A stretch of 64,000 nt of DNA from Candidatus Sericytochromatia bacterium (GTDB lineage: Bacteria; Cyanobacteriota; Sericytochromatia; S15B-MN24; UBA4093): assembly GCA_036676495.1 (NCBI GenBank), contig JAKFCT010000038.1, forward strand, positions 8,342 through 72,341, read 5' to 3'. The notes under the pieces are model-generated. The model made no database searches. It saw only the letters and a program-made list of their open reading frames with translations, and was not told the DNA's origin. The first letter of the stretch is position 1. Each line of letters begins with the position of its first letter. Below, one piece after another: positions 2,945-35,476 of this stretch. A program made the translations under genes and the position numbers.

Positions 2945-3463
2945 ATGCGCTTGCTCGGCATCGACCCAGGGACCGCCACCGTCGGCTACGGCGTCATCGA
3001 CGTCGACGGGGACTACCACTCCACCATGGTCGCCTTCGGAGTCATCAAAACCCCGCCCCACATGCCCATGGCCGAGCGCCTGCGCATCATCTACGACGAT
3101 GCCCGCGAGCTGCTGGCCCTCTACAAGCCCGGCGTCGTCGTCATCGAAAAACTCTTCGCCTTTCGCAACGTCACCAACGTCATCACCGTGGCCCAGGCCC
3201 GCGGCGTCCTGACCCTGGCGGCGCATCAGGCGGGCTGCAAGCTCGCCGAGTACACCCCAATGCAGGTCAAGCAAACCATCACCGGCTACGGCCGCGCCCA
3301 GAAGCTCGAAATCCAGGAGATGGTCCGCGACATGCTCGACCTCCCCTCCATCCCCCGCCCCGACGACGCCGCCGACGCCCTCGCCTTCGCCCTCACCCAC
3401 GTCCAGTTCCTGCAAGGCGGCGGCGCGCCCGACGAGGACGATCTCTCCCCGGAGCTCGCATGA
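2945..3463 (+). CDS. ruvC: Crossover junction endodeoxyribonuclease RuvC
   Basis: LGIDPG..GYGVI, VAQARGV, EYTPMQVKQTITGYGRAQK, PDDAADALA motifs. Confidence 0.97.
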   Translation: MRLLGIDPGTATVGYGVIDVDGDYHSTMVAFGVIKTPPHMPMAERLRIIYDDARELLALYKPGVVVIEKLFAFRNVTNVITVAQARGVLTLAAHQAGCKLAEYTPMQVKQTITGYGRAQKLEIQEMVRDMLDLPSIPRPDDAADALAFALTHVQFLQGGGAPDEDDLSPELA

Positions 3464-4065
3464 TCATCTCCCTGAAGGGCACGCTCGCCCACTTCGGAAA
3501 CGACTACGCCATCCTCGACGTACACGGAGTCGGCTACCAGGTCTTCCTCTCCGCCAGGCAGCTCCGCGACCTGCCCCCCGAAGGCCAGACCGTCACCCTC
3601 TACACCTACCTCGCCCACCGCGAGGACGCCATGCTGCTCTACGGCTTCCCCTCCCTCGAAGAACGCGAGCTCTTCCTCATGCTCACCTCCGTCTCCGGAG
3701 TGGGCACCAAGACCGCGCTGGGGATCCTCTCGGCCATGAGCGCCTCGGACGTGGTCACGGCGATCGCCACCGCCGACTCCAAGCGCCTCGCCAAGGCTCC
3801 CGGCATCGGCAAGAAGACCGCCGAACGCCTGATCCTCGAGCTCAAGGAGAAACTCACCGCCAAGCGCACTGCCTTCCGCGAAGGCCTCGGCGCCCATGCC
3901 CTCCCCGCCTCGGGCCTCAGCACGGAACTGCAGGAGGCCGAGCTCGCCCTGCTCTCCCTCGGCTACGATCCCGACGAGATTGCCACCGCCCTCGGCCGCA
4001 TCCCTCCGGGCGCCTCCATCGAAGACGCCATCCGGTCGGCCATCGAACGCCTGAGCGAAATCTAA
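3460..4065 (+). CDS. ruvA: Holliday junction branch migration protein RuvA
   Basis: DVHGVGYQV, REDAMLLYGF, VSGVGTKTAL, PGIGKKTAERLILELK; ATGA overlap with ruvC. Confidence 0.97.
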   Translation: MIISLKGTLAHFGNDYAILDVHGVGYQVFLSARQLRDLPPEGQTVTLYTYLAHREDAMLLYGFPSLEERELFLMLTSVSGVGTKTALGILSAMSASDVVTAIATADSKRLAKAPGIGKKTAERLILELKEKLTAKRTAFREGLGAHALPASGLSTELQEAELALLSLGYDPDEIATALGRIPPGASIEDAIRSAIERLSEI

Positions 4066-4169
4066 GCATGTGCTCCCGCGGACCAAGGCCCGCTTGGCTT
4101 CTTCGAAGCCGCTTCCTATGCCGCTCGGCAGCGGCAAGGAAGCCTTATTTAGCGGGCCAGGCCGCTTAG

Positions 4170-6134
4170 CTACGCCGCGGACGGCGGCTCCACCCGGCAT
4201 GCCGCCGGGACGCCGCGGGGCAGCCGGAACCAGAACGTGCTGCCCTTGCCCGGCTCGCTGCGCACCCCGATCTGTCCCCCATGGGCCTCGACTTGCGCCT
4301 TGCTGATGCTGAGTCCCAAGCCCGTTCCCGCCTTCATCCGGCTTCCGGCCTCCAATTGCGAGAAGCGCTTGAAGAGCTTGGGGACATCCTCCGGCGCGAT
4401 CCCGATCCCGGTGTCGCTGACCTCGCAGAGCACGCCGTCCCCATCCTCCTTCAGCCGAACCTCCACATGCCCCCCTTCGGGCGTGAACTTGAGGGAGTTG
4501 CCGATCAAGTTGGAGACCACCCGCTCGATGCGCTGCGGATCCAGCACCTGCATCACCGGGGCTTCCGGCATGGAGGCGTGAAGGTCCAGGTGGCGCTCCT
4601 CCGCCTGGGGGCGAAGGCTGTCGACGAGCTCCCGGATCCGCCCGGCCAGGTCCGTCTCCTCGCAGTGCAGCCGGAACGTGCCGGCGTCCAGGCGCGCGAC
4701 GTCCAGGAGATCGTTGACCATGCCCTCCAGCCGCTTGGAGCTCTTCGTGATCTGATCGACGAAGTCATGCTGCGTCGGAGTGAGCGGGCCCCCGAGCTCG
4801 TCCTCCAGGAACTCCGCGTAGCCCAGGATCGAGGTCAGGGGAGTGCGCAGGTCATGGGAGACGGCGTTGACGAAATCGCCCTTGAGCTTGTCGAGTTCCT
4901 TGAGTTTCTCGAACTGCTCGCGCAAGGTGGCCTCGAGACGTTTCCGCACGGTGATGTCGCGCGAGATCACCATGACCCCGATCAAGCTCCCGTCAGAGGC
5001 GTAGTAAGGGTACTTGGAGCTGTCGTAGACCCGATCCTCACCTCCCGGAGTGCGAACTTCGATCTCGTAACTCTGCGGGGCCTCCGAGGCGAGGACGGCC
5101 TGGTCGTTCTCCATGATCCGGCGCGCCGTGTCTGCCTCGAAGATCTCGACATCCCGCCGGCCGAGGATCTCCGGGACCGGCCGCCCCGCCATGCGTGCGA
5201 AGGCCGGGTTCGCCAGGAGGTAGCGCCCCTCGCGGTCCCGGATCATGATGAGGTCCGGCGAGGTCTCGATGAGGGTTCGCAGCGTGGCCTCGCGCTTGCT
5301 CAAGGAGGCCTCGACCTGCTCCAGCACTCCGGAGTGCCACCAGAGCAGGGAGGCGGTGACGACGACCATGCTCGTCACCATGAACCCGGTCACGAGGGGG
5401 GGATCGATTCCCCATGCCCGTCGCGCCCAGAGGCCCATCAGCCCCAGCAAGACCGGAGTGAGCAAAACCACGGGAAGCAGGCTCCTCAGAATCCGCCCGC
5501 CCAGACCCTCGCTGGAGAGCAAGGCCATGAACCCCCGTTCAGGGCGGGCTGCCAGCAGGCCCGAGGCCAGGATCAGGAACGCCAGGGCCGTGCTCAGGGC
5601 CATGGGATGGACCCCCGGCCCCAGGCGGGTGAAGGTGGCCACCTCGAAGAGGTAGCCGACGAGCGGAAAGAAGGCGAGAATGGCGGCGCCCAGTGCGAGG
5701 ACCTGCGACATCCGCTGAAGGCCGGGCGATCGGGCGCCCAGGGCGTACATGCTGGCGCCGAGCAGTAGCAAGCCCAGGGCCGTATTGGGCGCCACGGGGC
5801 CCAGCGGCTCGCTCGCAAGCACGAGCGGCGTGCCCCAGAACCCTCCGCCGAGCACGAGCCCGCCGATCACGACGGCCGCGACGACGGCCGCCCGCGCGGC
5901 GCGGAGGGCCCGCGGCGGAGGGGGATCCGCGCCTTGGAGCCCGAGCGCTCCCCCCAGCAGCAGGATGGCGACGGCGACCAGCGGATGCATCGCGTCCGCG
6001 GGCATGGAGCCGCCGCGTCCGGTCAGGACGGGCAGCCAGGTGAGGAGGACCAGGACGGCGAGCGCCGAGGCCCCGAGGCTCGCCGCACGGGCGTAGCGGC
6101 GAAGATACCGCAGCAGCTGCGGATGGCGTCGCAT
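4170..6134 (-). CDS. Membrane-bound PAS-domain sensor histidine kinase (orphan in this window)
   Basis: About 7 hydrophobic helices, PAS/PAC domain, H-box [13 protein letters not shown]-box [11 protein letters not shown] boxes DTGIGI and GTGLGLSI. Confidence 0.92.
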
Positions 6135-6269
6135 GAACCCCCGCCCCCTCCCGTTCGACTCCTCCTGCCCACGCCGGCACCGATCGGCCGAGACGCGCCG
6201 ATCCGGCGCCCTCCACCGGCAATTTACCGAAGTCGGGATCGGATCGCCAGGGAAGGCTCCCTGATGGGG

Positions 6270-7460
6270 CTAGAGTCCCAATTCGGAGACGATCTGCCCG
6301 GGATCCTCGGCCACGCGGCGGCGGTAGCACATGCGCTGCAGGATCTGGGGAAGGTCGCGGATCGGCTTGCCTTGCCGCAAGAGTTCGGCCAGGACCGCGT
6401 GGATCTCGCTGAGATCGTAGGATTCCCGGGCCAGCCGGACCACCGCCGGAGCCCGCAGCGAGACCTTTTCGAGCAGCAGGTCGACCTCGTCGTAGCTGAG
6501 GATCTGATGGGCATGGTCCTGGGCCACCGCCCGCAGGTGCTGGAGGATGACCGACTGGGGCAGAAGGAGCAAGCAGCCCATGGCGGCCGCCTGGGGCGCC
6601 ATGTCCTCGGGGACCCAGACGGCAGCCCGCCCGCTGAGGGGTTCCTGGGCCGCCAGGGCCCGGGCGTCGCGGCTCAGCTCCGCAGGCGGATCGAGCGCGA
6701 GCACGTAGCCGATGGCCAGGTGCCCACCCGCCACGGGGATACCGCGCACCAGGATCCGGTACTCGCCGGCCCCCAGGTTGAGGTTGTCGCGGAACTGGAC
6801 CCCCGGCAGGACGAAGCCGGTCTCCATGGCCAATTCGACCCGCATCTGGACGACCTGATCCATGAGGTAGCCGCCCGCGGTGGGCTCCACCAGGGTCACG
6901 ACGTCGATGCCGAACTCCACCGCCACCGGGGCCAGCCCCAAGAGATCGAAGACGTTCTCGGGGTTGCGCAGGGCGGGATCGATCGCGCCGACCTCCTCGC
7001 CGTGGGCGCGCGGCTCGGGTTCGGCGAAGATCATCGGGATCGGCAAGCGCGGGGCCAAGGTCTTCGGGATCTGAGCGACCAGGCCTCCGAGACGGCGCAG
7101 GCGGCCCATGTCGCCGGGCGGCAGGCCCGGGGGAGCTCCCTTGCGGCGGTAGGCGGCCTCGGCGAGCTGCTTCAGCTGATCGAACTGGTGAAGGGCCGCA
7201 TTGGCGTCGAAGCGCAGGCGATCGTCGTTGGCCAAAGCCGCCACGATCCGCTCCACTTCCTCCGGACATTCCGGCAGCATCCCGCTGGCGTTCGCCTGAG
7301 CGAGGAGGCCCTCGGCATGGCGCAGGACCTCCATGCCCGGGGTGACGGTCTGGATCAGGGTCTCGACGTAGCGAAGGGCCTCGGCGTCGTCCTTGAGGAC
7401 TTCGAGCTCTCCTTCCGCCGATCCTTTGCCCTCGATCACCGTGAACCGCTCGCGCGCCAT
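6270..7460 (-). CDS. Soluble protein carrying an FlhA-like (FHIPEP) cytoplasmic domain, no transmembrane region
   Basis: From PENVFDLLG onward it aligns by eye with this window's FlhA ([26 protein letters not shown] versus GLVLPPIRVRDNLQLKPKEYRINLRG); SD-like GAGGGG upstream of ATG. Confidence 0.8.
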
Positions 7461-7587
7461 GCTTCACCCCCTCTGAATCGGTTGCCGGGTCCACTATACC
7501 CCAACGAGCGAGCGGCCATTCAGGGGGGGACGGCCGCGGGCGGGGCGGTCCCGGATGGAACAGTCGTTCGACCCCGGGGCGTTCGGA

Positions 7588-7596
7588 TGGTACAAT
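7588..7596 (+). promoter_or_regulatory. Extended -10 promoter element for ruvB
   Basis: TGGTACAAT about 40 nt upstream of the start; SD AGAGGAG at 7621-7627. Confidence 0.5.
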
Positions 7597-7634
7597 GGCC
7601 CTGGAGATCCGCCCCGTTCCAGAGGAGACGTCCC

Positions 7635-8699
7635 TTGGCCATCGTTCCGTCCACGCCCGAGCCGCGGGAAGTGCTCTCGCCGGCGCAGAGCCCGGCAGAG
7701 TCCCAGCTCGAAGCCAGCCTCCGCCCGCAATCGCTGGAGGACTACACCGGGCAAGAAGCCCTCAAGGACGGCCTGAAGATCGCCATCGAGGCCGCCCGGC
7801 ACCGCCAGGAGCCGCTCGATCATGTGCTCTTCTACGGGCCCCCGGGCCTGGGGAAAACCACGCTGGCCGGGATCCTCGCCCATGAGATGGGCTCCCAGCT
7901 GCGGATCACCTCGGCGCCCGCCCTGGAGCGGCCGCGCGATCTGGCCGGCTTGCTCGTCGCCCTCAAGCCGGGCGACATCCTCTTCATCGACGAGATCCAC
8001 CGCCTCAACCGGCTGGCCGAGGAGATCCTCTATCCCGCCATGGAGGACTGCGCGCTCGACATCACCATCGGCAAGGGGCAGACCGCGCGGATCAAGCGCC
8101 TTCCCTTGAAGCGCTTCACGCTGGTGGGGGCCACCACGCGGGCCGGAAGCCTCTCGGCTCCCTTGCGCGATCGCTTCGGCCTGATTCAACGCCTCGAATT
8201 CTACCGGCCGCATGAGCTGGCGAGCATCCTGGTGCGCGCGGCGGGGATCCTGAAGGTCGACCTCAGCCCGGAAGGCGCCGAGGCGATCGCCAAGCGCTCC
8301 CGCGGCACCCCCCGCATCGCCAACCGCCTCCTCAAGCGCGTCCGCGACTTCGCCCAGGTGCGCGCCAACGGGCAAGTGACCGCCGAAGTGGCGGAAGAGG
8401 CGCTCGGCCAGCTTCACATCGACGCCCTCGGGCTGGACCCCACCGACCGCCGGCTGCTGGAACTCGTGATCACCCAGTTCGACGGGGGACCGGTCGGGAT
8501 CGAAACCCTGGCCACCGCGCTTTCCGAGGACGTCTCCACCCTCGAGGACGTGGTCGAACCCTACCTCCTGCAGGCGGGCCTGTGGCGCCGTACCCCGCGC
8601 GGGCGCACGGTCACGCCCCAAGCCTACCGACATCTCGGCCTGACGCCGCCTCAGCAATCCCTCGCGCTGCCGCTGAGCATGCTGAACGAAAGCAACTGA
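7635..8699 (+). CDS. ruvB: Holliday junction branch migration helicase RuvB
   Basis: [12 protein letters not shown], Walker [39 protein letters not shown]; TTG start at 7635 chosen from the SD (the ORF-track extension back to 5934 is spurious). Confidence 0.96.
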
Positions 8700-19043: not shown

Positions 19044-21137
19044 CTAGAGCGTGATGACGCCCAGGGAGCGCACGTCCAACGAAGGTGGAATCACCTCATT
19101 GTAGGCCATGACCGTCAAGTTGGGTAGTTTACGCTCGATCAGGCGCCTGAATACCAGGCGGACCTTGGAGGAGCACAGAACCACCGGCTGGTGCCCCTGT
19201 GCCATGAGGCGCTCGACGACTTCAGCGGCGTTGCGAACCAGCTTGCCCGCCGCTCCGGGCTCCAGGGCGACGAAGGCGCCCTGCTCGGTGTGTTGGATGG
19301 CGTTGCCGAGGATCATCTCGAGGTTGGGGTCGAGCGTGATGACCGGCAACGAGCCGTCCGGAGCGAGCACGGACTTGCAGATGGATCGCGCCAGCGCCTG
19401 GCGCGTGTGCTCGGTCAGCGTGTCGAGATCCTTGGTGAGGCGCGCATGGGTCGCGAGCGCCTCCATGACGGGCAGCAGGTCGCGGATGGAGACCCGCTCG
19501 GCCAGGAGGTTCTGCAGCACCCGCTGCACGTCTCCGATGCCGAGGAGATCCGGGACGAGTTCGCTCACGACCGCCGGCGACTCTTCCTTGAGGTTGTCCA
19601 GCAAGGCCTGGGTGTCCTGACGGGTGAGGATGTCGGGGGCATGCGCCTTGATCACCTCGGTGAGGTGCGTGGCGATGACCGAGGAGACGTCGAAGACGGT
19701 GTAGCCCGCCATCTCCGCGCGCTCCTTCTGATCCTCGGTGATCCAGACGGCAGGCAAACCGAAGACCGGCTCGGTGGTGGGGATTCCCTCGATCTCCTCG
19801 ATGGCCATGCCCACGTTCATCGCCATGTAGTGCTCGATGTGGACCTCTCCGCGCGCGATCTCGACCCCGCGCAGGTTGATCCGGTACTCCTTGGGCTTCA
19901 GCTGCAGGTTGTCGCGGACGCGGATCGGCGGCAGGACCAGGCCCAGCTTGAGCGCCGTCTGGCGGCGGATCATGGTGACCCGCTCCAGGAGGTCTCCGCC
20001 CTGGGAGGCGTCGACGAGGGGGATCAGGCGGTAGCCGATCTCCAGCTCCATCGGGTCGACCTTCAAGAGGCTCATGACGTTCTCGGGGCCCTTGGGAGTG
20101 GTATCCGGCGTCCCGGCAGCCGACTGCGCCGCCGCCGCGGCCCTCGTAGCCGCCTCCTTCTGGGTGCGCTGGAGCACGAAGGCCAGGGCCCCGACTCCGC
20201 ATCCCACGATCATGAAGGGGAGGGTCGGGAGGCCCGGGATCACCGAGAGCCCCACCAGCATGGCCGAGGCGATCATGAGGGGCTTGGGGTTGGAGATGAC
20301 CTGCTTGGAGATGGCGGAGCCGAGGTTGTCGTCGGAGGCCGCCCGGCTGACCATGATGCCGGTGCCGGTCGAGATCAGCAGCGCCGGGATCTGGGTGACC
20401 AGGCCGTCGCCGATGGTGAGGAGCGTGTAGGTCGTCAGCGCCTGCGAGATCTCGATGCCGCGCTGGAAGACTCCGATCAGGATGCCCGCGACGATGTTGA
20501 TGGCCGTGATGATCAGGCCCGCCACCGCGTCGCCCTTCACGAACTTCGAGGCGCCGTCCATGGTGCCGTAGAAGTCCGACTCGCGCTGGATCTTCTTGCG
20601 CCGCTCCTTGGCCTGCTCCTCGTTGATGAGACCGGCGTTGAGGTCGGCGTCGATCGCCATCTGCTTACCGGGCATGGCGTCCAGGGTGAAGCGGGCGGCG
20701 ACCTCGGAGATGCGGCCCGCGCCGTTGGTGATGACCATGAACTGGATCACGATCAGGATCAGGAAGATGATGACGCCGACCACGTAGTTGCCCTGAACCA
20801 CGAAGTTGCCGAAGGCCTCGACGACGTGCCCCGCATCTCCCTCGCTGAGGATGAGGCGGGTGGTCGAGACGTTGAGCGCCAATCGGAACAGCGTCAGGAT
20901 CAGCAGCAGCGACGGGAAGGTGTTGAACTCCACCGGCTCCATGACGTAGAGGGTGATGAGCAGCATCAGCAGCGAGCCCGTGATGTTGACCACCAGGAGC
21001 ACGTCCAGCAGGCCCGCCGGGATGGGGATGATGAGCATCAGCACCACCGCCACCATCATGACGGCGAGCACCATGTCGCTCTGCTTGAGGAGGCGGGTCA
21101 GCGCGGATTCGGCCTGGGGCACGGTCTGGGTTGCCAA
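19044..21137 (-). CDS. flhA: Flagellar export protein FlhA
   Basis: FRLALNVSTTRLIL, EVAARFTLDAMPGKQMAIDADL, FYGTMDGASKFVKGDA. Confidence 0.98.
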   Translation of the reverse strand: MATQTVPQAESALTRLLKQSDMVLAVMMVAVVLMLIIPIPAGLLDVLLVVNITGSLLMLLITLYVMEPVEFNTFPSLLLILTLFRLALNVSTTRLILSEGDAGHVVEAFGNFVVQGNYVVGVIIFLILIVIQFMVITNGAGRISEVAARFTLDAMPGKQMAIDADLNAGLINEEQAKERRKKIQRESDFYGTMDGASKFVKGDAVAGLIITAINIVAGILIGVFQRGIEISQALTTYTLLTIGDGLVTQIPALLISTGTGIMVSRAASDDNLGSAISKQVISNPKPLMIASAMLVGLSVIPGLPTLPFMIVGCGVGALAFVLQRTQKEAATRAAAAAQSAAGTPDTTPKGPENVMSLLKVDPMELEIGYRLIPLVDASQGGDLLERVTMIRRQTALKLGLVLPPIRVRDNLQLKPKEYRINLRGVEIARGEVHIEHYMAMNVGMAIEEIEGIPTTEPVFGLPAVWITEDQKERAEMAGYTVFDVSSVIATHLTEVIKAHAPDILTRQDTQALLDNLKEESPAVVSELVPDLLGIGDVQRVLQNLLAERVSIRDLLPVMEALATHARLTKDLDTLTEHTRQALARSICKSVLAPDGSLPVITLDPNLEMILGNAIQHTEQGAFVALEPGAAGKLVRNAAEVVERLMAQGHQPVVLCSSKVRLVFRRLIERKLPNLTVMAYNEVIPPSLDVRSLGVITL

Positions 21138-29264: not shown

Positions 29265-29480
29265 CTAGTCCCTTCCCCCGTCGGTCACGTTCCGGACTCC
29301 CGGATGGCAGCGCCGCCGGTAAGCCTCGATTCGCTCGAGAAGCTCGTCGATCGACTCCTTGACCACGAAGCGATGCTCGTTGGTCAGGGTCACGATGGTA
29401 TCGGGCCGCTCCTCGATGGTCTCGATCAGATCGGCGTTGAGCACCAACTCCGAACCATTCAGCCGGGTCACCTTGATCAC
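29265..29480 (-). CDS. flbD: Flagellar protein FlbD (SwrD family)
   Basis: MIKVTRLNG..LNADLIETIEERPDTIVTL..FVVKES. Confidence 0.92.
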   Translation of the reverse strand: MIKVTRLNGSELVLNADLIETIEERPDTIVTLTNEHRFVVKESIDELLERIEAYRRRCHPGVRNVTDGGRD

Positions 29481-29782
29481 GGTTTGCCCCCCTTGTCCTT
29501 TGCCGCGCCGCGGGCGCTGTCCACCCGCCGGACCCAGACCAGGACCTCGGCCACCACCGGGTACAACTCGGCGGGAATCTGCTCTCCCAGGTCCAGCGCC
29601 GCCAGCGCCGAGACCAGGCCCGGATTCTCCTGGATCGCGACGCCGGCCTCGCGGGCCGTCTCCACGATCCGCTCCGCGACCCGGCCGGAACCCTTGGCGA
29701 CGACCTCCGGGGCCTCGTCCGCTCCGTCGTCGTAGCGAAGGGCGACCGCCTTCTTCGGAGGCTTCGCGTCACTCATAGCCAT
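29477..29782 (-). CDS. Stand-alone FlhB C-terminal-like protein (EscU/YscU/HrcU family, FlhX/YlqH type)
   Basis: KAVALRY..APEVVAKG.G.VAERI..IPAELYPVVAEVL, parallel to the post-NPTH part of FlhB. Confidence 0.9.
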   Translation of the reverse strand: MAMSDAKPPKKAVALRYDDGADEAPEVVAKGSGRVAERIVETAREAGVAIQENPGLVSALAALDLGEQIPAELYPVVAEVLVWVRRVDSARGAAKDKGGKP

Positions 29783-31359
29783 ACATCCACCTGGCGCAGG
29801 GCGTCGATCGACGCAGCCGGCGCCTTGGGCTGGACATGCTTGACCCCGAGGGCGTTCACATGAAGGCCCGTCGCCTCCAAGGCCTCCTGCAACTCCGGCA
29901 AGTGCTGGCGAAGCGCCTCGGCGATCGCCTGATCTTCAACGGCGACCTGACAGTTTAGCTGCTTTCGTCCCAAAAGTAAATCGACCCGGACGCGCTGTAG
30001 ATGAGTGGTATCCAGGGTCACGACCACCCGCGTCTCCTCCGGATTGCCACCCTTGCGCCCCTTCCCTTCCTTGGCCTGGTACTGGACCCGGATCTCCCCG
30101 GATCCGCCGTTCCACCAGAGGGGCATCGCCACGGAGCGATCCGCCGCGGCATGCTGGGGATCGATCGCAGCCGCGTTCACCACTTGCCCGAAGCGGACCT
30201 CGGCCAGCGCCTCGCGTATCGGCTCTCCGCCGTCCCCGCTGCGGACCGCCCGCTCCAGAACCGCGGTCAGCGCCTCCTGGATCTTCACGAGCGGCTCGGC
30301 AAGAGGCCGGCCTGCTACCGCGGAGCGTGCCGCTTCCGCCTGAGGCGCCGCCCCTTGCCGGGGGGAGGCTTCCGGGCGTTCCGCCGGGGCTTTCGGGGTC
30401 TCGGCCCTTGGGGTCTCGGCCCTCTGGGTCTCGGCCTTTTGGGTCTCGGCCAGCGAGGCGGCGTTGCCGGCCTCCGGGAGCGTCACAGCGGGCTTGAGCG
30501 CGGCGGCCTCCGGCGCGAGCAAGGCCCGCGCGATCCGAGCCTCCGGCGGAGTGAAGGCTCTGGCGAGCTTGAGCAGATGCTCCGCGGTCTCGGCGGCATC
30601 CCCTTCCGGCAAGGCCAGATCCATGAGGGCTTGAGCGGCGGGAGTGGACGGTTCGGGGATCCGGCGGGCGATCGCCGCCAGCCGCTCCCCCGGCGTCGAA
30701 TTCGCTTGCATGCGACCCGAGACCCAGTCGACCGCCTCCTCCGTGACCGGAAGCCCCTTGGACACCAGAAACGCCGCCGCCTCCATGACCTTGACCGGCA
30801 CGGGCAGCTTGGCCGCCGACGCGGCCGCCGGTGTCGCCGCGGGCGTGGCAGAGCGCGAGCCCGCCGGATCGGTCTCTTGCGATCGCGCCGCGAGGCGGTT
30901 CAGGGCATCGCCAAGCTGCGTCATCGCCTCCCGGCTCACGGTCCCCGCATGGCGCAGCAGCGCCCGCGCCATGGCCTGGTGCTTGGGATCTGTCGGCAAG
31001 CTCATTTCTTGCAACTGAGCCGCCAGGCGCTCGGGCTTCAGGGGAGCGGCCGGTTCGTGGCGAATCTCGGCGATCCTCAAGCGCAGCGGGTCGCTGCTGC
31101 CCTCGGGCCGGGGCTCGACCACGGCCGTGAAGACGTCTCCGGCCCGCAAGGGAGCCTCGGTGCGGACCTTGGCCGATCCGAGGTCGAGGAAGTCGAGCAG
31201 GGCCGTCTGGTTGAGGACCTGAAGGACCCTGGCTTCGACCTTGCCGGCCTGGATGAGGGCCTTGAGCAAATCCCCCTCGATCTTCCCTGCGCCCCCGGTG
31301 GGGAGGGCGACGACGGTGCCCGGTGTCGGGACCCGCAGGTTGGGATCGAGGGGGATCAT
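29773..31359 (-). CDS. Second FliK-like protein (hook-length-control C-terminal-like domain)
   Basis: Long Ala/Pro-rich body and C-terminal VVVTLDTTHLQRVRVDL..LQEALEATGL..VDVWL; directly upstream of the FlhB-C-like gene. Confidence 0.7.
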   Translation of the reverse strand: MIPLDPNLRVPTPGTVVALPTGGAGKIEGDLLKALIQAGKVEARVLQVLNQTALLDFLDLGSAKVRTEAPLRAGDVFTAVVEPRPEGSSDPLRLRIAEIRHEPAAPLKPERLAAQLQEMSLPTDPKHQAMARALLRHAGTVSREAMTQLGDALNRLAARSQETDPAGSRSATPAATPAAASAAKLPVPVKVMEAAAFLVSKGLPVTEEAVDWVSGRMQANSTPGERLAAIARRIPEPSTPAAQALMDLALPEGDAAETAEHLLKLARAFTPPEARIARALLAPEAAALKPAVTLPEAGNAASLAETQKAETQRAETPRAETPKAPAERPEASPRQGAAPQAEAARSAVAGRPLAEPLVKIQEALTAVLERAVRSGDGGEPIREALAEVRFGQVVNAAAIDPQHAAADRSVAMPLWWNGGSGEIRVQYQAKEGKGRKGGNPEETRVVVTLDTTHLQRVRVDLLLGRKQLNCQVAVEDQAIAEALRQHLPELQEALEATGLHVNALGVKHVQPKAPAASIDALRQVDVWL

Positions 31360-34051: not shown

Positions 34052-35476
34052 TCAGGCCTGCGCGTCGAAGCCGGAATTGGCGATCGCCTCGGCGACCGGC
34101 AATTCCTCGGTCTCGCCCGCAGACCAGGCCTCCCAGCCCAGTTGCGCGGAGTGACCCGAGCTCTGCTGGCCGGAGGGATCCCGCTGGGGCTCCTGACCGA
34201 ATGCCTGACGACCGAACTCGAACCCGGCGGCGGCTTGCTGGTCGCGCGGACCCTGGTTGTTCACGCTCACCTCCAGGCGATCGATCTTGATCCCCTGATC
34301 CGCCAGGGTCGTCCGTAGCGCGGCGAGCTGGTTCTCGACCAGATCCCGCACTCCGGCATGCTCGACCCGGATGACCGCGCTCACCGCGCCTTGGTGGGCC
34401 TGCACCCGCACTTCCATGCGGCCGAGATGCTCGGGAGTGAGCTGGAGCCTCAGCTCCGACGGGCGATCGGGAGTCTTCTGCGCCTGGACGAAGGTCTGCG
34501 TGATCGCTTCCTTCACCGGCAAGGGCTCCGCCTTGACAGCTTGGGTCTCGGACCTGACGACCGACGGGCCGGAGACCGGAGTTCCGGCCGCCGCCCTGAC
34601 GGGCTCAGCGATCTCCCAGGGCTTCACCGCCCCGGTTTCTGGCGCAGCCTCGTCGATGACCGCGGCGGTCACCTCGTCGAGGCTGGCCGGCATCGGGCGG
34701 GATTCGGCGCGTGCCGGGGCGGGGGTCGTCTCGGTGCGAGGAGCACCGTCCAACGATTCCCTCAGGGACGTCAGCCCTTTCACGGCATGCAAACCATCCA
34801 GCGAACTCGGGACGGACGGGCGCGCGACCGGCTTGACCGGCAACGCGGCCTTGGCGGCTTCGGGGGCTTCGGGGGCCTCGGCCTCCTCGGCTTCCTCGGC
34901 AGGCACGACCGGTTCCTCGGTCTTGGAAACCGCTTCCTGCTTGCCCTGCGGTGCCACCGTCTTGACGAGCGCCGCAGCGACCACCGGATCGTCTGCCAGG
35001 GCGACCTCTTCGGTACCGGTCGCCACCACGGCGGTCGCCGGCGTCGGAAGCGCCTCGTCCGCTCCGGAAGCGTCAGGTCCAGCAGGCATCGCCACGGGAG
35101 CCTCCGGCACGGGAACCGACGCGGTCATGACCGCATAGCTCGCCAGTTCGGAGACGGGGGCCGGCGGAACGGCAGCCGGCATGGCCGAAGCCTGCTCGGC
35201 GGGATTTCCCTCGGGGTTCTCGGCCGTCGCGTCCTTGGTCGGCTGCTCGCCCTTCGGCGAGGCCTCCGCGGAGGCTTCGGGGGGGACCTCAGGCGCGTCC
35301 TGAGGCTTGGTCTCGGCCACTCCCTTGGATGTCGATCCGGGCTTGGCCTCTGCACGGTTCAGCCGCTCTTCGAAGGAAGGACCTTCCTTGCGGCCTCCCG
35401 CACGAGGCATCTCGCGGGGCGCGTATCGCGTATCCGGGGCGGGAGCGGCCATGGCCACCATGGGATTGGGGGACAT
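34052..35476 (-). CDS. fliK: Flagellar hook-length control protein FliK
   Basis: Disordered N-terminus; C-terminal LRLQLTPEHLGRMEVRV..LRTTLADQGI; upstream of flgD. Confidence 0.9.
   Translation of the reverse strand: MSPNPMVAMAAPAPDTRYAPREMPRAGGRKEGPSFEERLNRAEAKPGSTSKGVAETKPQDAPEVPPEASAEASPKGEQPTKDATAENPEGNPAEQASAMPAAVPPAPVSELASYAVMTASVPVPEAPVAMPAGPDASGADEALPTPATAVVATGTEEVALADDPVVAAALVKTVAPQGKQEAVSKTEEPVVPAEEAEEAEAPEAPEAAKAALPVKPVARPSVPSSLDGLHAVKGLTSLRESLDGAPRTETTPAPARAESRPMPASLDEVTAAVIDEAAPETGAVKPWEIAEPVRAAAGTPVSGPSVVRSETQAVKAEPLPVKEAITQTFVQAQKTPDRPSELRLQLTPEHLGRMEVRVQAHQGAVSAVIRVEHAGVRDLVENQLAALRTTLADQGIKIDRLEVSVNNQGPRDQQAAAGFEFGRQAFGQEPQRDPSGQQSSGHSAQLGWEAWSAGETEELPVAEAIANSGFDAQA

Follow-up and report, generated by a model that had tools for sequence, protein, structure and literature searches.

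A soluble FlhA cytoplasmic-domain paralog lacking D4 in a Candidatus Sericytochromatia genome, and a wider set of membrane-free FlhA-C copies

Identification of a soluble FlhA paralog

The window analysed here is a stretch of 64,000 nucleotides from a metagenome-assembled genome of Candidatus Sericytochromatia, a non-photosynthetic relative of the cyanobacteria (assembly GCA_036676495.1, contig JAKFCT010000038.1, positions 8,342 to 72,341). The product of window 6270..7460 (minus strand), given the working name Q396, is a cytoplasmic protein of 396 amino acids (aa). Its N-terminal part is a helical domain, which a flexible connector joins to a module of the FlhA cytoplasmic domain (FlhA-C). 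This module covers the end of the linker together with subdomains D1–D3; neither the membrane engine nor the D4 lid is present. In flagellar protein export, FlhA-C serves as the platform that sets the order. The Q396 gene is kept under purifying selection, and its product belongs to a broad, undescribed set of free FlhA-C copies that are frequent in Sericytochromatia and a sister class. We tentatively propose that Q396 is a soluble accessory or regulatory subunit contacting FlhA-type rings and not a chaperone decoy.

Residues 163–391 of Q396 matched positions 317–545 of the 657-position Pfam profile FHIPEP (PF00771; E 7.4e-43), with a score of 147 against a domain cut-off of 29. Scores with the NCBIfam FlhA equivalog model TIGR01398 (142.1 bits, cut-off 772.1) and with the SctV model (54.5 bits, cut-off 692) were below the cut-offs. 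A sequence-only reading of the window had remarked that the protein tracks the FlhA encoded in the same window. By BLASTP, residues 158–386 indeed aligned to residues 342–570 of this FlhA (33% identity over 230 residues, E 9e-34), and the aligned region included the quoted strings PENVMSLLK, RDNLQLKPKEYRINLRG and SIRDLLPVMEAL; but the nearest full-length relative was a second FlhA (type A) encoded on contig C45, with 43% identity over 228 residues (E 4e-55). Among PDB sequences, the cytoplasmic domain of B. subtilis FlhA matched best (3mix, E 4e-33). Judged by sequence comparison, Q396 descends from the type A lineage of FlhA and not from type B, the FlhA of the window.

Hydropathy analysis of Q396 gave no membrane segment, the sole peak (residues 170–191) being the first strand of D1. 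No hydrophobic segments were found in residues 1–160, and multiple ones lay across residues 8–324 of the full-length FlhAs; the N-terminal polytopic membrane domain with its FHIPEP cytoplasmic loop was not present in Q396. Subdomains were mapped by alignment to E. coli FlhA, which is equal in length to the Salmonella FlhA whose numbering is used in the literature. Boundaries were taken from the excerpted text of PMC5916509, in which D3 ends at 583 and D4 comprises 584–682. The Q396 chain stopped at E. coli position 579; D4 was absent and D3 was short by about 4 residues (Table 1). These results agreed with the earlier description of a soluble, truncated FlhA cytoplasmic-domain paralog whose last subdomain is missing, the FHIPEP match covering the C-domain part only. 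An AlphaFold2 (AF2) model built from 75 sequences had a predicted local distance difference test score (pLDDT) of 90–96 across residues 201–380. With Foldseek, this model matched solved FlhA-C (6ch1, E 1.2e-17, root-mean-square deviation 2–3 Å over about 220 columns), and further matches were 3a5i, 7amy and SctV structures. The GC content at third codon positions of the frame was 0.88, and its codon-position GC pattern resembled that of the real genes of the genome.

Purifying selection on the Q396 gene

Orthologs of Q396 were found in 12 other clusters at the 90% identity level, with 83–90% identity to it. The length was 396 aa in 12 of the 13 clusters and 400 aa in the remaining one, the architecture was the same in 13/13, and the frame was intact in three genomes and 10 further metagenome clusters. 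Among 47 genomes of the class, a full-length ortholog was present in three, all of one genus. Using DNA of the window's genome and two further genomes of this genus, ratios of nonsynonymous to synonymous substitution rates (dN/dS, Nei-Gojobori) of 0.108, 0.167 and 0.172 were obtained for the three genome pairs, at dS of 0.63–0.75. By half, the ratios were 0.065–0.179 for codons 1–160 and 0.139–0.171 for the FlhA-C part. D2 was the least conserved subdomain among the orthologs (73% identity vs 85–86% in D1 and D3).

The sequence-only reading had held that the gene does not look like a pseudogene and had proposed a search for the two-domain architecture in related genomes together with a dN/dS estimate; both analyses pointed the same way, and the gene is kept under purifying selection. 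Compared with FlhA, Q396 is cut short at both ends, which might suggest a decaying, functionless fragment of a duplicated flhA. That reading almost certainly does not hold, being contradicted by the selection analysis (dN/dS 0.11–0.17, low in both halves), by the constant length and by a mean column identity of 94% over the first 130 residues.

That conservation included the predicted disordered first 23 residues. Helices in the N-terminal domain were predicted by AF2 at residues 25–59, 67–78, 80–106 and 115–128; blocks within residues 31–100 had pLDDT 75–84, residues 1–23 and 120–160 had pLDDT <50, and a separate model of the domain alone (3 sequences) had a mean pLDDT of 54.8. Relatives were sought by a word-indexed search with residues 1–135 covering proteins of 30–693 aa. 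Only orthologs of the same architecture (13 clusters) were found among proteins of 217–693 aa, and there was no match among those of 30–216 aa. Comparison by hhalign with the N-termini of the other soluble paralog types gave probabilities below 1%, and a feature search of the ESM Atlas gave no usable match. In Pfam, with E allowed up to 1, the N-terminus matched DUF6247 alone, at 0.29 and by chance. The N-terminal domain is unrelated to FlhA, as first noted, and in these searches residues 1–135 matched orthologs of the same architecture alone.

Functional residues and predicted complex with FlhA

A conserved hydrophobic dimple of FlhA-C (D456, F459 and T490) docks FlgN, FliS and FliT complexes, according to the excerpt of PMC8166844. 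At the corresponding positions, the 13 Q396 orthologs had E at 456 (13/13), S (8) or T (5) at 459, and Q (12) or H (1) at 490, and F459 was kept in both full-length FlhAs of the genome. A conserved chaperone dimple was thus not found in Q396, and the earlier suggestion that a free copy could serve as a decoy for chaperone-substrate complexes was weakened.

As given in the excerpt of PMC5916509, the ring is formed mainly through D1-D3 and D3-D3 contacts, and linker 347–361 binds both a pocket of the neighbouring subunit (F400, L401, E508, Q511, L512 and R515) and a positive cluster (R388, R391, K392 and K393). The same excerpt reports premature FlgM exit with D4 truncations and proposes that the D4 lid suppresses chaperone binding. 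In Q396 the acceptor pocket read F, V, E, L, L, K, R391 was kept, and the NPENV linker motif was common to Q396 and type A FlhA. All six C-domain columns that were invariant in 46 full-length FlhAs, up to position 480 of type A FlhA, were kept (6/6), and the structural invariants R391, G399, P403, D409 and W465 (E. coli FlhA numbering) were retained. Identity between Q396 and type A FlhA was 53% in D1, 33% in D2 and 35% in D3. The ring modulator suggested in the sequence-only reading may be compatible with this retention of D1, the linker motif and the acceptor pocket.

Hetero-oligomer modelling with FlhA, which the sequence-only reading had proposed, was run as a pair of full Q396 with residues 335–704 of type A FlhA. 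The complex score was 0.46 (runs 0.51, 0.46 and 0.44), compared with 0.00 for the best of three controls; contacts agreed among runs at ≥88% and the partner pLDDT was ≥64. In the benchmark, 58 of 80 solved complexes passed the mark for a complex, as did 2 of 110 mismatched pairs; passes with a score of 0.60 or under comprised only 7 of the 80 solved complexes and both of the mismatches. The prediction gives weak support to a putative complex of Q396 with type A FlhA-C. The pass may reflect likeness only, because FlhA-C nonamers are among the solved structures.

Two flagellar gene sets

The genome contained four FHIPEP places: type B FlhA in the window, type A FlhA (704 aa, contig C45), Q396, and a soluble paralog of 484 aa on contig C47. 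The Q396 gene lay 11.6 kb from the flhA of the window, in line with the earlier estimate of about 12 kb. The operon containing type B flhA (window 13191–42912) encoded FliE, FliF, FliG, FliH, FliI, FliP, FliR, FlhB, FlhA and FliL, and further two FliK-like proteins, FlgE, MotA, MotB, FliM, FliN/Y, a PilZ protein and a sigma factor, together with CheR, CheA and CheC. On contig C45 (L019:1908–16734), a FliK-like gene, two FlgF/G-type rod genes, flgA, flgH, flgI and a sigma factor gene were accompanied by genes for two short rod-family proteins, FliE, FliF, type A FlhA, an unknown protein of 463 aa and a PAS kinase. FlgH and FlgI, with FlgA, make the P and L rings. The genome therefore has two sets of flagellar export genes: beside the second FlhA there were two FliP, two FlhB and two type III secretion system (T3SS) ATPase matches. 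Both FlhA types occurred in most genomes of the class.

Some other features of these gene sets were noted. The FliF of contig C45 (L019:10051–11934, plus strand, 627 aa) carried a C-terminal segment resembling the middle domain of FliG (PF14841, E 8.6e-11), a fusion of FliF-FliG type. In the window operon, two FliK-like (Flg_hook) genes (29773–31359 and 34052–35476, both minus strand) flanked flgE. A 101-aa open reading frame (29477–29782, minus strand) comprised only the C-terminal domain of FlhB (PF01312 258–335, E 1.8e-20), and an adjoining frame of 71 aa (29265–29480, minus strand) presumably encodes FlbD.

Soluble FlhA-C paralogs in related genomes

FHIPEP matches were present in 44 of the 47 class genomes searched, the largest number in one genome being seven, and a single genome held up to five membrane-free copies beside two full FlhAs. 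In these 47 genomes a soluble paralog never occurred without a full-length FlhA in the same genome. Forty further loci were extracted and their open frames were classed by architecture. The soluble types were proteins of 298–303 aa (D1–D3 only), 430–485 aa (a different N-terminus followed by D1–D3), 482–490 aa (the C47 type), 584–635 aa (a roughly 200-aa N-domain with D1–D4), 364–475 aa (D1–D4, the gene immediately following that of a third membrane FlhA-like protein, a shorter one) and 369–405 aa (D1–D4). The C47 paralog of the window's own genome (L020:3173–4627, minus strand) was soluble and D4-less, and the ~240-aa N-domain of its type was homologous to that of the 584–635 aa types of a sister family (hhalign 98.9%). 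Genes of the C47 type were flanked by a divergent SNF2 helicase in the window's genome and in one other (G017), and in the window's genome also by a clostripain-family peptidase. At five loci of family f2 (L041, L044, L046, L048 and L053), the third membrane FlhA-like gene encoded 578–649 aa with part of the C-domain missing; together with the following 364–475 aa FlhA-C gene, it looked like a split or remodelled FlhA.

Across the phylum, FHIPEP matches were found in 78 of 121 genomes. A low-GC family of the sister class (genomes of ~2 Mb) had matches in 40/40, with two or more in 37/40, and none of 40 genomes from 18 other families of the phylum had a match. Of five second-copy loci read in the sister class, four encoded soluble proteins (490–493 aa, D1–D4) and one a 595-aa protein with hydrophobic segments. 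The sister-class protein of ~492 aa had a roughly 150-aa N-domain and a complete FlhA-C, and was encoded outside flagellar operons beside a single full-length FlhA (Table 1). Two metagenome proteins from outside the Q396 genus showed other arrangements: in P0018 (895 aa) the FlhA-C module occurred twice in tandem, with HEAT repeats after each copy, and in P0020 (589 aa) a complete FlhA-C was joined to a right-handed beta-helix domain.

A tree of the D1–D3 region was built with IQ-TREE from 50 rows, using E. coli as outgroup and dropping the long or partial rows L056, L040, L051 and L052. The type B FlhAs stood next to the outgroup and all soluble paralogs fell on the type A side. Q396 and its orthologs formed a clade (100/99) that joined the D4-less clade of the 298–303 and 430–485 aa types with an ultrafast bootstrap value of 84 and an SH-aLRT value of 98, at a point where long branches meet. 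Absence of D4 and the S/T at position 459 (T in both of those types) agreed with this join, giving moderate support to a probable grouping of Q396 with the other D4-less soluble paralogs. Q396 shares with that group the absence of a membrane domain, an end inside D3 or just beyond it, S/T459 and a common branch, and the N-termini and C-terminal tails differ. The soluble copies are annotated in databases as 'flagellar biosynthesis protein FlhA'. A literature search at the level of listings and the openings of abstracts gave no description of natural soluble FlhA-C paralogs.

The ruvA-ruvB locus

In the Q396 genus, the gene order was ruvC, ruvA, kinase, Q396 paralog, ruvB and aminotransferase (Table 1). 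Between two genomes of the genus, identity was 92.5% for RuvA, 93% for RuvB, 89% for Q396 and 62% for the kinase. In a sister genus (G012), ruvC-ruvA-ruvB were contiguous and the ruvA-ruvB gap was empty, and in another genus (G010) a LysM-M23 peptidase gene lay between ruvA and ruvB; no positional ortholog of Q396 was found at this site in either. Within this family the gap (window 4066–7595; L072 and L073) is a site of variable insertion, and the Q396 and PAS kinase genes are a genus-specific insertion there, because in the two other genera ruvA-ruvB were contiguous or filled by the peptidase.

The kinase beside Q396 belonged to a family with at least 57 kinase matches in the genome. Origin of the pair by segmental duplication of type A flhA, the unknown gene and the kinase of contig C45 was considered and rejected: no similarity was seen for the 463-aa protein encoded beside type A flhA, and the C45 kinase ranked only 34th of the 57 kinase matches, with 41% identity to the Q396-adjacent kinase. 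On contig C48 (410–1384), the second T3SS ATPase gene ended 55 nt from a convergent histidine kinase gene; the core of this kinase was 61% identical to that of the Q396-adjacent kinase, which may be chance given the 57 matches. PADLOC-DB defence-system models gave 0 families for Q396 and for three other soluble paralogs.

The sequence-only reading had credited the gene with its own -10-like TATAGT. The hexamer is there, and a Shine-Dalgarno-like purine-rich run (GAGGGGG) sits between it and the ATG, but a consensus sigma-70-type scan of 5900–7800 made no promoter call on the minus strand. A terminator scan of the same interval found none, including between the Q396 gene and the downstream kinase gene.

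Table 1. Coordinates of Q396, its parts, neighbouring genes and related loci (window positions unless a locus is named)
Feature	Position	Strand	Basis
Q396, 396-aa soluble FlhA-C paralog, whole coding sequence with stop	6270..7460	-	Open reading frame list, family matches
Residues 1-23, predicted disordered, 21/23 invariant among three genomes	7392..7460	-	pLDDT <50, alignment
Residues 25-128, lineage-specific helical domain	7077..7388	-	AF2 model
Residues 129-160, Pro/Ala-rich low-confidence connector	6981..7076	-	pLDDT 32-40
Residues 157-177, C-terminal part of FlhA linker (E. coli 347-361), NPENV motif	6930..6992	-	Alignment
Residues 178-250, D1 first part	6711..6929	-	Alignment
Residues 251-300, D2, altered dimple positions 456 E and 459 S	6561..6710	-	Alignment
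Residues 301-320, D1 second part, position 490 = Q	6501..6560	-	Alignment
Residues 321-396, D3, end = E. coli position 579	6273..6500	-	Alignment, Foldseek
TATAGT, -10-like hexamer, 32 nt upstream of Q396 ATG	7493..7498	-	Sequence reading
Membrane PAS histidine kinase, 654 aa, downstream neighbour, 135 nt past Q396 stop	4170..6134	-	
ruvA, left border of insertion	3460..4065	+	
ruvB (start codon not fixed), right border, divergent from Q396 gene	7596..8699	+	
Full-length FlhA, type B, 697 aa, in large fla/che-like operon	19044..21137	-	
Sister-class soluble protein of ~492 aa	L075:2023-3501		
Sister-class soluble protein of ~492 aa	L076:2228-3709		
Sister-class soluble protein of ~492 aa	L077:2040-3518		
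Sister-class soluble protein of ~492 aa	L079:2000-3472		

Discussion

In all current models known to us, FlhA-C is tethered to the membrane engine within a homononamer. Q396 resembles FlhA/SctV (PF00771, TIGR01398) in the linker end, D1, D2 and D3, both by sequence and by predicted fold. It differs in lacking the transmembrane engine and D4, in the dimple reading E/S/Q, in its extra 135-residue helical N-terminus, in a gene lying outside any flagellar operon, and in a score of 142 bits against the 772-bit equivalog cut-off. With the other soluble paralogs of Sericytochromatia and the sister class it shares a membrane-free FlhA-C module on the type A side of the tree, but its N-domain is unlike any of theirs and its exact architecture is confined to one genus (3/47 genomes). 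Stand-alone proteins of the FlhB C-terminal domain are widespread, and to our knowledge no function has been assigned to them. They embody the same concept, a free cytoplasmic domain of a gate protein encoded beside the full-length protein, in a different fold and family. The nearest experimental models are Salmonella FlhA-C constructs (328–692, and a 38K fragment without 328–351), which, as excerpted from PMC5916509, were monomeric in solution and formed linker-dependent nonameric rings on surfaces. Q396 is likewise a soluble FlhA-C without membrane domain; those constructs were laboratory-made with D4 and an intact dimple, whereas Q396 is natural, D4-less and equipped with an added N-domain.

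The retention of D1, D3, the C-terminal linker motif and the acceptor pocket, together with loss of the aromatic centre of the dimple, argues for an accessory or regulatory role, which we put forward tentatively. Homotypic interfaces would bring Q396 into contact with the cytoplasmic rings of FlhA-type proteins or with other Q396 molecules. In this way Q396 may adjust how the ring assembles, or the substrate-switching state of the type A export gate, and it probably does not itself dock chaperone-substrate complexes. A further contact, specific to the genus, would come from the N-terminal domain. The neighbouring histidine kinase gene suggests regulated expression or a signalling link.

Several observations weigh against this proposal. 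Of the linker-binding positive cluster, R388, K392 and K393 are not kept in Q396, nor are they in type A FlhA. D3 of Q396 (35% identity to type A) is more diverged than type A is from type B in the same subdomain (50%), and the ring competence of Q396 is not assured because D3 is the main ring-forming subdomain. At the complex score obtained, a pass is more likely to be wrong than right, except where the pairing was already a likely one. The gene stands outside any flagellar operon, its neighbours being ruvA, ruvB and the kinase. In family f4 (8 of the 47 genomes, with both FlhAs), 7/8 genomes showed those two matches alone, so the soluble paralogs are not required for the machines.

An unlikely alternative is that Q396 is a cytoplasmic decoy or alternative dock whose D1–D2 cleft, left open for good by the missing D4, binds a flagellar chaperone, FliJ or an export substrate at a distance from the gate, and so buffers clients or re-routes them between the two systems. 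The D1–D2 fold is intact in the AF2 model and by Foldseek, two export systems per cell pose a sorting problem, and loss of D4 takes away the lid proposed in the excerpt of PMC5916509 to suppress chaperone binding. Against this stand the substitutions at all three dimple positions in 13/13 orthologs, with F459 kept by both real FlhAs, and the low conservation of D2 relative to D1 and D3. Q396 might instead serve the adjacent histidine kinase, reporting the assembly state of the export apparatus or being controlled by the kinase. The two genes are on the same strand, 135 nt apart without a terminator-like site between them, and were inserted together between ruvA and ruvB in this genus only; an analogy is the Campylobacter FlgSR system, which depends on the flagellar T3SS. 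But the kinase is far less conserved than Q396 (62% vs 89% between two genomes) and is one of a family with at least 57 matches in the genome, the other D4-less paralogs are not beside kinases, and no response regulator is adjacent, which makes this reading quite improbable.

A self-assembling ring or scaffold for a non-flagellar task, using only the oligomerising FlhA-C fold, is equally doubtful. It would accommodate the scatter of the paralogs beyond flagellar operons, beside GIY-YIG-like genes, an SNF2 helicase and peptidases, as well as the diverse, unrelated N-terminal domains and the metagenomic fusions of FlhA-C to beta-helix and HEAT repeats. It sits poorly with the presence of a full-length FlhA in the 47 class genomes wherever a soluble paralog occurs, and with a linker motif specifically common to Q396 and type A FlhA. 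The accessory or regulatory role at FlhA-type rings remains our preferred, tentative reading of Q396.

A bolder view, which we regard as distinctly improbable, is that these non-photosynthetic cyanobacteria possess a toolkit of free FlhA-C copies, in which hybrid or separate cytoplasmic rings would choose which of the two flagellar export gates receives substrates and the timing, Q396 being a kinase-coupled switch subunit that would block the type A ring or change its shape. If true, type III export would be under a further, new kind of control, exerted by exchanging paralogs at the docking platform. Natural, selected membrane-free copies would be ready-made probes of ring assembly and of the roles of D4 and the linker, and the variation among them is useful in this respect, some copies being lidless and some having changed chaperone sites. 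Their plain annotation as FlhA hides them in databases. Sericytochromatia and the sister class stand out as lineages whose flagellar export apparatus is unusually elaborate, and their soluble copies could point to a principle of regulation where an organism has two flagellar systems.

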